Part shown: piece by piece, positions 44,835 to 48,174 of the stretch
Layout: each line of letters starts with the position of its first letter
How positions within the stretch are numbered: position 1 is the stretch's first letter
Assembly (NCBI RefSeq): GCF_001677475.2
Contig: NZ_CP015229.1
Strand: one strand, 5' to 3'
Length of the DNA: 64,000 bases
Origin: Escherichia coli
GTDB taxonomy: Bacteria > Pseudomonadota > Gammaproteobacteria > Enterobacterales > Enterobacteriaceae
Position numbers: made by a program

Positions 44835-47800
44835 TAAGGAAACGAGATGACCCGTCCGATACAGGCCAGCCTCGATCTACAGGCATTAAAACAGAATCTG
44901 ACCATTGTCCGCCAGGCCGCGCCGCACGCGCGCGTCTGGTCGGTGGTAAAAGCGAACGCTTACGGGCACGGTATTGAGCGTATCTGGAGCGCGCTCGGGG
45001 CTACCGATGGCTTTGCATTACTTAACCTGGAAGAGGCAATAACGTTACGTGAGCGCGGCTGGAAAGGACCGATCCTGATGCTGGAAGGATTTTTCCATGC
45101 TCAGGATCTGGAGATTTATGACCAGCACCGCCTGACCACCTGCGTACACAGCAACTGGCAGCTCAAAGCACTGCAAAATGCACGGCTAAAAGCCCCGTTG
45201 GATATTTATCTTAAAGTGAACAGTGGGATGAATCGGTTGGGCTTCCAGCCCGATCGCGTGCTTACCGTCTGGCAGCAGTTGCGGGCGATGGCGAATGTTG
45301 GCGAAATGACCCTGATGTCGCATTTTGCCGAGGCGGAACATCCTGATGGAATTTCCGGCGCGATGGCGCGTATTGAGCAGGCGGCGGAGGGGCTGGAGTG
45401 TCGGCGTTCGTTGTCTAATTCGGCGGCGACTCTGTGGCACCCGGAAGCGCATTTTGACTGGGTTCGGCCTGGCATTATTTTGTATGGCGCTTCGCCGTCC
45501 GGTCAGTGGCGTGATATCGCCAATACCGGATTACGTCCGGTGATGACGCTAAGCAGTGAGATTATTGGTGTCCAGACGCTAAAAGCGGGTGAGCGTGTGG
45601 GCTACGGCGGTCGCTATACTGCGCGCGATGAACAGCGAATCGGCATTGTTGCCGCAGGATACGCCGACGGTTATCCGCGCCATGCGCCTACCGGTACTCC
45701 TGTTTTAGTGGACGGCGTGCGCACCATGACGGTGGGGACCGTCTCGATGGATATGCTGGCGGTTGATTTAACGCCTTGCCCGCAGGCGGGTATTGGTACG
45801 CCGGTTGAGCTGTGGGGCAAGGAGATCAAAATTGATGATGTCGCCGCCGCTGCCGGAACGGTGGGCTATGAGTTGATGTGCGCGCTGGCGTTACGTGTCC
45901 CGGTTGTGACGGTGTAACTTGTTGTAAGCCGGATCGGAGGCAGCGTCTTCTGGTTGCGAAAAAATCATACATCCGGCTGGTCAGCAACTGTAGTTGTTGA
46001 TGTGACAGAGCCATTTCCCATGATAGTGTCCATTACAATGATGGACACTATTTCCCCGGAACCTGAGTTCACCGCACAGGCGTTCTACATAAAACGCTTA
46101 CGTTTCATTGTTGACTCGAACTCGACTTCAGATAAATCACGCTTCACCCTTGATGCAGATTCGGGTTCATGTTCAGAATGTTGATTAACAGGCTGCGAGT
46201 CCTGTTGTCTTTCCAGACTCAACAGGCCCAACTGCTGATTCAGGAGCTCCAGGTCCTCTTGTACCTTCACGCGCTCCAGGAGTACCGGGTCCTCCAGGTG
46301 TTCCAGAGCCTCGAGGTCCAGTTCCTCCTGGTACTCCAGCTTCTCCAGCTTCTTCCGGTTCACCAGGCCCTCCTTGTGCAAAAAGTCCAAAAGGTCCTTC
46401 AGGCCCTGCTGTTTTTTCAGGCCCTCGACGGCTTTGAGCAGCGTCGAGAAATTGTCTTTGTCCCACGGGTTACCATTACAGCTAAACACCTTCAGGCTCT
46501 GAGGCTGCGGCACCTGTACCGTTTTAAACTTGTTTTCTCCACAGTAGTAAATTATTAGTTTGGGCGGCAGCCGTGGTGAAGAGAGCAAATCGTTACAAGA
46601 ACAGTCAAATACTTTCAGGCGAGTCAAGTTCTCCAGCATCTCATCAGGTATTAAGCTAATATTGTTGAAAGCGCAGCGCAGTGTATACAGGTACTGGGGC
46701 ATCGACGGCGGTAAAAATTGCAATAAGTTTTCAGAACAGTCAATCACTCTCAGGTTAGCCGACAGCTCAGGCAGCCAGATAATATAGTTTTCATCGCACT
46801 TCAGTACCATCAGTTTCGGGGGCTGCACCTTCGGTAACAAGATCAAAAAGTTCTCCATACATTCAAGCACTCTCAGCCCCTTTGGCATTACCTCCGGTAA
46901 CGCGGTCAACACGTTTCTACTGCAGTTAAATTCAATCAGATGTGGAGGCAAATTTTCAGGGAGGGAAGTCAGTCCAAGGTTGCTAAGATCGAGCATACTC
47001 TCTCTTGTTATGAGACATTCCTTCATTCTGCGCAATGCTTCTGCCCGGTCTTCAATCTGGCTTGCTGACTGGTTTTCTTTCAGGATATCTTCCTTGATTT
47101 CTTTCAGCCTTTCTTTCAGGTCTTCTTGGGGGATTTCTGACTGTTTGTTTTGCTGGTTTTCTTCCAGGATTTGGTACAGGTTTTTTTGCAGGTTTTCTTG
47201 CAGGTTTTCTTGCAGGTTTTCTTGCAAACCATCCTTCTGTATAGCCCATTCGCACCATTCGGCGACCATCATGAATTCGTTATGTTGCTGATTCAGGGGA
47301 GTTCCCAACGTGATGATGGTATTGTTGTCCACCTGTATGTTCACTTTGCCCGCGATACTGAGGTCAATGATCTGCCAGGGGGCATCACCCCAGCTGAATT
47401 TTTGCGGGCTGAGATACTTCATGTTCTGCAAAATTTGATTCTTGAGTTCCACCGACAGGAAGAGCCGCCCTGGCGGGCGTCGTACGCCTGGGTTAACGGA
47501 AGATGGGGGAATGGCGGGGGCGAATGGGCGGATGTCTTTAAAGCTGGCCATAATGCTACGTATCCTTGAAATAAATATCCTCTGGCAGCGCCGGAGACGT
47601 GAATGTGGTCACCGCAAAGGAGCCACAGGACGTTATTTGCGCTGATATAACTACTCATCGTTGACTTTTTCCCTGGTCAGAAATGCCGTGTCGGGTCTGG
47701 TACATGCTGTATTACGGCCCAGGCAGCTCTGACGTATTAAAGAAAATACGAGAGCGAACGACCCGGAAATAATCGTTATTAAGCAAAGGAATATCTATAA

Positions 47801-48174
47801 GAAATCGCTCATGCATCCGGTGCTACAGGAGGATGAAACGCCTATTGTGTGGGCTATGTCAGTGCGGCAGGTTGCGTGGGGGAATATGTTCAGACGATGT
47901 CAGGCAGGGGGCCCTGATGCTTGACGGGGATACCGGTAATGCGGGGCTGGTTATTCTGCACCTGTTGCAGTCGGAAAAAGCTATTACGCTGACTTTCTTG
48001 AGCCGGTGTTTTGAGTTTATTAGCCAGAGCCTGCAATGGTTTGTCATCCATAATTTAACCTTCTTCTGATGTTGGAATAATCATATCAAAATCAGGAAAT
48101 GACAAGTTTATATACAGGCTCAGGCTGCGTTTAGCAAAGCATCGCAACCGGCGATAGATGCTTCATTAAATTTA

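Follow-up and report, generated by a model that had tools for sequence, protein, structure and literature searches.

IS1414 is the insertion sequence (IS) that carries astA, and many of its copies in Escherichia coli have decayed (PMC12585946). It is an IS256-family element of about 1.3 kb, with astA (EAST1) lying inside the transposase gene. A fragment of it sits at the dadX-cvrA locus of E. coli K-12, where the RefSeq record of MG1655 gives 'insertion sequence: IS1414 (partial)' at 1240188-1240289, and the product of ymgM (b4740), a small protein that starts on this fragment, was detected in K-12 by epitope tagging (PMC6001520, Table 1). We analysed the same locus in a 64,000-nucleotide stretch of E. 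coli DNA (assembly GCF_001677475.2, contig NZ_CP015229.1), called the window below, in which the gene order is dadA, dadX (ending at 45917), a leucine-rich repeat (LRR) gene, a 620-bp interval, cvrA, ldcA and emtA. The LRR gene resembles slrP, sspH and ipaH in having an LRR domain of the SlrP/IpaH type, and LRR genes of type III effectors are usually preceded by long, regulated non-coding leaders. The interval, 47552-48171, separates the start of the LRR gene from the stop of cvrA, and a gene-free spacer of 620 bp is unusually long for the gene density of E. coli. The feature as a whole is an unannotated, decayed IS1414-like relic adjoining a mildly conserved non-coding block, probably a leader, and it is ordinary biology.

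We hold with good confidence that the interval is non-coding and consists of four parts (Table 1), namely the cvrA 3' flank, the IS1414-like relic, which takes up about a third of the 620 bp, a drifting spacer and a probable leader or promoter block of the LRR gene. Observed here are the homology to an IS, the lack of conservation of both of the main small open reading frames (ORFs), a difference in substitution rate along the interval, and deletion scars of K-12 type and O157 type in other strains. An earlier reading of the window, made from the sequence alone and called the sequence-only reading below, had described 47552-48171 as a gap without a convincing gene. Its coordinates are exact, only short ORFs are present (30-78 codons), and no frame is conserved.

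The first clue to the relic was a sensitive search of E. coli genomes, which returned 47-bp matches to transposase genes of the IS256 family, at their 5' ends. The 5' block of the relic is 84.7% identical over 111 aligned columns to the IS256-family left end of the reference element L011 (E=1e-27; the alignment takes in 109 window bases, 48014-48122, of which the outermost, 48122, is a chance match), and 84.5% identical to the IS element in L009 (E=2e-30). Sixteen haplotypes of the locus were compared, drawn from complete genomes, one contig of a metagenome-assembled genome (MAG), and contigs reached via LRR protein variants. The inner block aligns with IS nucleotides 377-440 at 73% identity in the window (E=2e-8), 78% in L004 (E=6e-11) and 77.6% in L007 (E=3e-9); matches in this range of E values (2e-8 to 6e-11) were obtained for four haplotypes, and they are collinear with the 5' block and on the same strand. 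With tblastn, transposase residues 1-25 and 77-103 are recognised in the relic, and about 45 codons are deleted between its two blocks. The most divergent haplotype, L007, retains about 40 extra IS bases, with IS positions 60-210 contiguous, and thus its apparent insertions are ancestral sequence lost elsewhere. The name IS1414 is fixed by the fragment annotated in MG1655, which is identical to L011 at 97 of 97 positions. Also, the junction at which CAGGCTC meets AGGCTGCG is common to all 16 haplotypes and is found in K-12 and O157 as well.

The likeness to IS1414 extends over the left terminus, the 5' untranslated region (UTR), the ribosome-binding site (RBS) with its start codon, and two segments of the transposase frame. 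Unlike IS1414, the relic measures about 190 bases at about 85% identity, is immobile and unannotated, and has no catalytic region, astA region, right end or target duplication. A full IS256-family DDE transposase has about 400 amino acids (aa) and belongs to Pfam Transposase_mut; here only residues of about 1-38 and 84-103 can be traced, and the six translated frames matched neither a transposase nor any other family in Pfam. A search of 47552-47929 for further transposase sequence or the right end of the IS gave nothing with blastn (word size 7, E<0.1) and only noise with tblastn (E<50). IS sequence beyond nucleotide 440, and with it a second terminal inverted repeat, is unmatched in every haplotype, and no inverted partner of the left end occurs within 45900-48200. 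With its right end deleted, the element leaves no position for the second copy of an 8-9-bp target duplication. In the most likely history, a single insertion placed an IS1414-like element between cvrA and the LRR gene, its transposase directed toward the latter, in an ancestor of today's LRR-bearing lineages. Later losses took all that lay past transposase codon 103 or so, along with the 45 or so internal codons.

For the substitution rates, the four-fold sites of cvrA served as the neutral yardstick, with a divergence of 5.0-12.5% from the window. In five comparisons the 179 bp next to the LRR gene (47552-47730) diverge by 1.1-2.2%, against 5-10% at the four-fold sites (Fisher p 0.0009-0.086), and in L007 by 7.8% against 12.5% (p=0.13), which corresponds to a rate 2-5 times slower. 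The spacer at 47731-47929 is not below the yardstick in 5 of 6 comparisons; the exceptional one, L008, has 93 aligned sites only, owing to a deletion. Relic, spacer and cvrA flank all evolve at roughly the neutral rate. Nucleotide diversity (pi) over 14 haplotypes is 0.032 in 47552-47730, 0.042 in 47731-47929, 0.059 in the relic and 0.083 in the cvrA flank, and 47552-47929 has stops in all frames. The LRR-proximal block is under mild purifying selection and, judged by its slow divergence, probably serves as the leader of the LRR gene, as its promoter or regulatory region, or as both. It is the place to look for the control region of this gene.

The suggestion in the sequence-only reading that the gap could hold the LRR promoter and regulatory sites is partly supported: the 179 bp are more conserved than neutral sites, but the promoter scan found no LRR promoter. 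No sigma-70-like site was found in 47552-47930, although activator-dependent promoters would escape such a scan, and the three sites found in the scanned region compare with 3.1 expected by chance. Nor was an MxiE box found near the LRR gene when 3 mismatches were allowed, so that this region differs from those upstream of slrP, sspH and ipaH in having no MxiE-box-like sequence near the gene, as well as no similarity to plasmid or phage DNA. Transcripts that come in from cvrA or from the relic may also add to LRR gene expression.

Several points weigh against the four-part reading and should be set against this evidence. Neither the right end of the IS nor its second inverted repeat turned up, no target duplication was seen, and the extent of the original element is not reconstructable. 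The rate contrast comes from few substitutions in non-independent haplotypes, with nominal p values of 0.0009-0.13, and it assumes a single shared history for cvrA and the spacer. Comparison of 47552-47929 with IS, plasmids and phages gave no similarity and hence no origin; in the search for paralogues of the non-IS part, plasmid sequences returned the same chromosomal locus only and phages nothing. The LRR promoter was not identified in the sigma-70 scan, whose sole hit in the interval is within the relic, at chance level, with a -10 hexamer specific to the window (GATTAT; the other 15 haplotypes have GCACAT or GCTCAT). Finally, a near-identical IS1414 start region in K-12 drives the detectable YmgM.

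Table 1. Features of the interval and its neighbourhood. Positions refer to the window unless a locus is named; a minus sign marks the strand on which the LRR gene and cvrA are read. PGAP, Prokaryotic Genome Annotation Pipeline.
Feature	Position	Strand	Basis or remark
LRR gene	46085-47551	-	ORF scan
LRR 3' tail surviving in K-12-type genomes, 71 bp	46085-46155	-	Junction alignment
LRR 3' tail surviving in O157-type genomes, about 112 bp	46085-46196	-	Junction alignment
Non-coding block, conserved, abutting the LRR start codon on its upstream side	47552-47730	-	AAGGA, 11 nt, ATG
Spacer, about neutral rate	47731-47929	.	29-bp indel at about 47843; partly deleted in L008
Decayed left end of an IS256-family, IS1414-like element	47930-48121	-	blastn and tblastn homology
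Relic inner block, transposase codons about 84-103 (FEPQLVKKNQTRITGM)	47930-47993	-	IS nt 377-440
Trace of transposase residues 30-37 (LKKVSVIA)	47979-48002	-	Different frame
Relic 5' block: left terminal sequence GAGCCTGTATATAAAC, 5' UTR, RBS, transposase ATG, codons 1-12	48014-48121	-	IS alignment
Relic transposase ATG	48051-48049	-	IS alignment
Relic RBS GAAGG	48063-48059	-	Transposase RBS
Single sigma-70-like site of the interval: TTGTCA, 17-nt spacing, GATTAT	48077-48105	-	Inside relic, upstream of relic ATG
cvrA 3' flank	48122-48171	-	Also in LRR-less strains (K-12, O157)
cvrA	48172-49908	-	ORF scan
Short ORF, 34 aa	47712-47816	-	ORF scan
Short ORF, 37 aa	47811-47924	+	ORF scan
Plus ORF cited in the sequence-only reading, 78 aa	47833-48069	+	AGGAGG directly abuts ATG (spacing 0)
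Short ORF, 62 aa	47859-48047	-	ORF scan
Chimeric ORF, 53 aa	47890-48051	-	GAAGG, 7 nt, ATG at 48051
Short ORF, 30 aa	48055-48147	-	ORF scan
PGAP YmgM-like calls	L001 4103-4249; L003 3595-3741; L004 2832-2978; L006 2809-2997; L007 2869-3027; L014 1515-1661	+ (window about 48154 onward)	

Among 5426 complete E. coli genomes, the full interval is present in 705, a K-12-type junction in 3308 (61%) and an O157-type junction in about 473 (about 9%), the rest being unresolved. LRR-less strains had been proposed as insertion-free references, and for the two main types this is wrong, as both keep part of the LRR 3' end (Table 1) together with IS sequence. In the O157 type, window position 46196 is joined to about 48061, and of the old relic the outermost 60 bp remain. 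In the K-12 type, the LRR tail is kept as far as 46155; next come the initial 97 bp of a young, oppositely oriented IS1414, and after these the flank AGGCTGCG. Because the LRR 3' tail is retained in both, these junctions are deletion scars and not empty sites. Most LRR-less E. coli have lost the LRR gene via at least two independent deletions and, being deletion derivatives, cannot be used as pre-insertion references for the boundary of the island.

When compared with the window, the MG1655 fragment and ymgM share the dadX-cvrA locus, the IS family and the junction at CAGGCTC, and both ORFs begin at the ATG of the IS transposase (MDDKQLQA... against MDDKPLQA...). The K-12 fragment differs in being younger, with its 97/97 identity to a current IS1414-like element against about 85% for the window relic, and in its opposite orientation. 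It reads into cvrA antisense to give the 67-aa YmgM, which the window ORF does not, and in K-12 the LRR gene is gone, along with almost the entire interval. One copy of CAGGCTC lies at transposase codons 8-10 and another, which is the complement of the IS terminus, at the junction of the old relic and the flank, so that the simplest history for K-12 is a second IS1414 insertion followed by a deletion. The young element would have entered the LRR tail at window position 46155/46156, and a deletion between the two CAGGCTC copies would then have removed the rest of the young IS, the LRR gene and most of the interval, leaving ymgM behind. The start region of ymgM is owed to the IS remnant and the deletion. 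An inversion model, in which the relic was flipped between CAGGCTC and GAGCCTG, was rejected because identity to the current element is 97/97 for the K-12 piece and only about 85% for the window relic; a second insertion and a deletion by microhomology fit better. In E. coli HH97 (L014 1385-1515) the whole dadX-cvrA spacer is replaced by about 110 bp of unrelated, G+C-rich sequence. This spacer was rejected as an ancestral empty site, since it is unique to 1 of the 5426 genomes and thus uninformative.

The sequence-only reading had also considered that the gap could be the decayed remainder of an inserted element. An IS1414-like fossil is indeed present, but nothing ties this IS to the delivery of the LRR gene. 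In its stronger form, the idea takes the relic as what is left of the vehicle that brought in the LRR gene, with 46-48.1 kb being one inserted element, either composite or an IS-adjacent unit. The G+C content of the LRR gene and spacer (0.42-0.53, against 0.55-0.60 in the flanks) speaks for it, as do the position of the relic, which abuts the module on the cvrA side, and the restriction of the LRR family to E. coli and Shigella, with just distant relatives elsewhere. Nevertheless, a single IS end is present, with no second copy, inverted partner or target duplication flanking the LRR gene. At least two independent IS1414 hits have occurred here (the old relic at about 85% and the K-12 fragment at 100%), so that the adjacency may reflect a hot spot, and no true empty site was found, HH97 having the lone different spacer. 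We consider the vehicle unlikely. The lower G+C content and the family restriction make an ancient acquisition of the LRR module plausible, though not one tied to this IS.

Turning to the small ORFs, we found that the plus ORF at 47833-48069 has no properly spaced RBS, as had been noted from the sequence alone. None of the short ORFs is conserved, and this includes the 53-codon minus ORF, although it does have a well-spaced RBS, a point missed in the sequence-only reading. This ORF is a chimera in which transposase residues 1-25 are joined to 77-103, and it exists because the relic keeps the RBS and ATG of the transposase; the plus ORF is the antisense shadow of the transposase relic. Over the 16 haplotypes the minus ORF has 53 aa in five, 26 aa in six, where G>A at 47972 creates a common TGA, and 12, 28, 50, 50 and 65 aa in the remainder. 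The length of the plus ORF ranges from 0 (absent) to 95 aa, its frame being broken by the 29-bp indel, a 1-bp deletion, a deletion of about 130 bp and other changes. Variable sites are spread evenly over the codon positions (12/10/11 in the minus ORF and 11/10/12 in the plus ORF), and in both frames non-synonymous changes outnumber synonymous ones by about 1.3-4.5 to 1, in most cases by 2-3 to 1. On neither strand is a frame kept across the haplotypes or an excess at third positions seen. PGAP calls a gene on the plus strand in L001, L005 and L006, on the minus strand in L004 and on neither in L008; at times it annotates a 50-aa plus-strand version starting from 47917. Since the lengths vary, the codon positions are even and the strand of the PGAP calls is inconsistent, neither frame is under coding constraint, and both ORFs evolve neutrally. 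The 53-codon ORF may still be translated, because in K-12 an IS-derived start region yields detectable YmgM.

Two further explanations draw on this start region. According to the first, the IS1414 initiation module has seeded small ORFs twice, in YmgM and in the 53-codon relic ORF, and the 179-bp block is a dedicated leader through which a hypervariable, effector-like LRR gene specific to E. coli responds to a signal from secretion or from the host; we regard this combination as very unlikely. An expressed and functional relic ORF in its 5 of 16 haplotypes would be a case of lineage-restricted gene birth from an IS. According to the second, which we judge highly improbable, the interval codes for a genuine small protein, which would be either the 53-aa minus product as an exapted, YmgM-like transposase N-terminus or a plus product of 50-95 aa. 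The good RBS of the minus ORF, the detection of YmgM from a near-identical start region, and the PGAP annotation of one or the other ORF in several genomes are consistent with such a protein. They are countered by the premature TGA that 6 of 16 haplotypes share, the 5 of 16 in which alone the minus ORF is intact, the many in which the plus ORF is frame-shifted or absent, and the evenness of the substitutions. The plus product is also rich in Cys, Trp and Phe, as an antisense translation would be, and a family scan of four small ORFs with the LRR gene as control found no Pfam or NCBIfam match for 47890-48051-, 47833-48069+, 47859-48047- and 47712-47816-. Compared with YmgM, the window ORF shares about the first 9 codons, runs on the opposite strand and ends inside the relic.

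Just as improbable is a small regulatory RNA, an option of the sequence-only reading that found no support, or a structured cis-regulatory leader of the LRR gene such as a riboswitch or thermometer: the conservation of the LRR-proximal 179 bp and the shared direction of cvrA, spacer and LRR gene, by which transcripts probably cross the interval, would suit it, but Rfam 15 gave no match at E<=1 within the interval, no stable fold was found over four segments (z-scores 0.10, 0.58, -0.88 and 1.83, with 0.58 for 47552-47730 and 0.10 for the cvrA flank), the minus strand of the interval has no terminator-like site, and variation is too scarce for covariation testing.

The main value of the non-coding, four-part reading is in annotation, and no long-standing question is opened by it. 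The interval deserves a 'partial IS1414-like' feature, as K-12 already has, and short ORFs called here on inconsistent strands are best treated as artefacts of the relic. As for the flank at 48122-48171, a terminator-like site was sought there and none was found; it has a weak hairpin only and no predicted intrinsic terminator. The final 57 bp of the interval are matched in 4296 of the 5426 complete genomes, and the cvrA-ldcA-emtA flank has a best identity of 99.1% to complete E. coli genomes, which points to a source in E. coli or Shigella whose allele is absent from that set. YmgM itself (L013 4189-4464, or MG1655 1240188-1240463) begins at the ATG of the 102-bp IS1414 fragment and runs antisense into cvrA. 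At several loci (Table 1) PGAP annotates a YmgM-like 'hypothetical protein' on the strand opposite the 3' end of cvrA and then labels cvrA a pseudogene with a 'missing C-terminus'. In those loci cvrA is full-length when compared with the window gene (1737 nt, no gaps), and the label seems to be an artefact that the annotation produces systematically.

In its LRR part the LRR protein is SlrP/IpaH-like, residues 162-360 matching the SlrP model with E=1e-36, and it has no NEL domain. Outside its own family, the nearest proteins are E3 ligases of the NEL type, with 31-33% identity. A contig scan for relatives of the locus in other species gave one 2-kb E. coli-like contig, probably a mis-binned MAG, and a literature search gave no paper linking dadX, an LRR gene and type III secretion. 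Among alleles from E. coli and Shigella, identity is 72-93% for the protein and 83-94% for the DNA, and indels are numerous, against 97-99% for the adjacent cvrA; diversifying selection or old allelic lineages could account for this variability. Inside the gene, at 47045-47246, there is a tandem periodicity of 12 bp, with 12 overlapping 70-nt copies in register, which encodes a LQENLQENLQENL repeat and is a likely source of allele length variation. The single microRNA match from Rfam in this gene is due to chance. A direct repeat of 17 nt (46064-46080, TGAGTTCACCGCACAGG; 47604-47620, TGTGGTCACCGCAAAGG; 82% identical) flanks the gene; it is probably a chance occurrence, though it is placed where a duplication or recombination site would be.

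Fusions were also encountered. In one assembly (L019 1501-2961; protein P0038, 486 aa) a short upstream ORF that begins MSRYISAN..., and whose ATG lies at 47658 in the window, continues in frame into the LRR gene and adds a 35-residue N-terminal extension to the protein. Protein P0052 (444 aa) has both an LRR domain and, like cvrA, a Na+/H+ exchanger domain (PF00999), which suggests that a deletion has fused cvrA to the LRR gene across the interval in some strain. At the other end of the gene, an IS3-family element lies just past the LRR 3' end in two LRR-positive strains, L004 (O145:H28 RM12581; 1-846) and L006 (1-703), in place of the dadX-side spacer, and in L004 it truncates the LRR gene to 442 aa. 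These elements are a further sign that the locus attracts insertion sequences.

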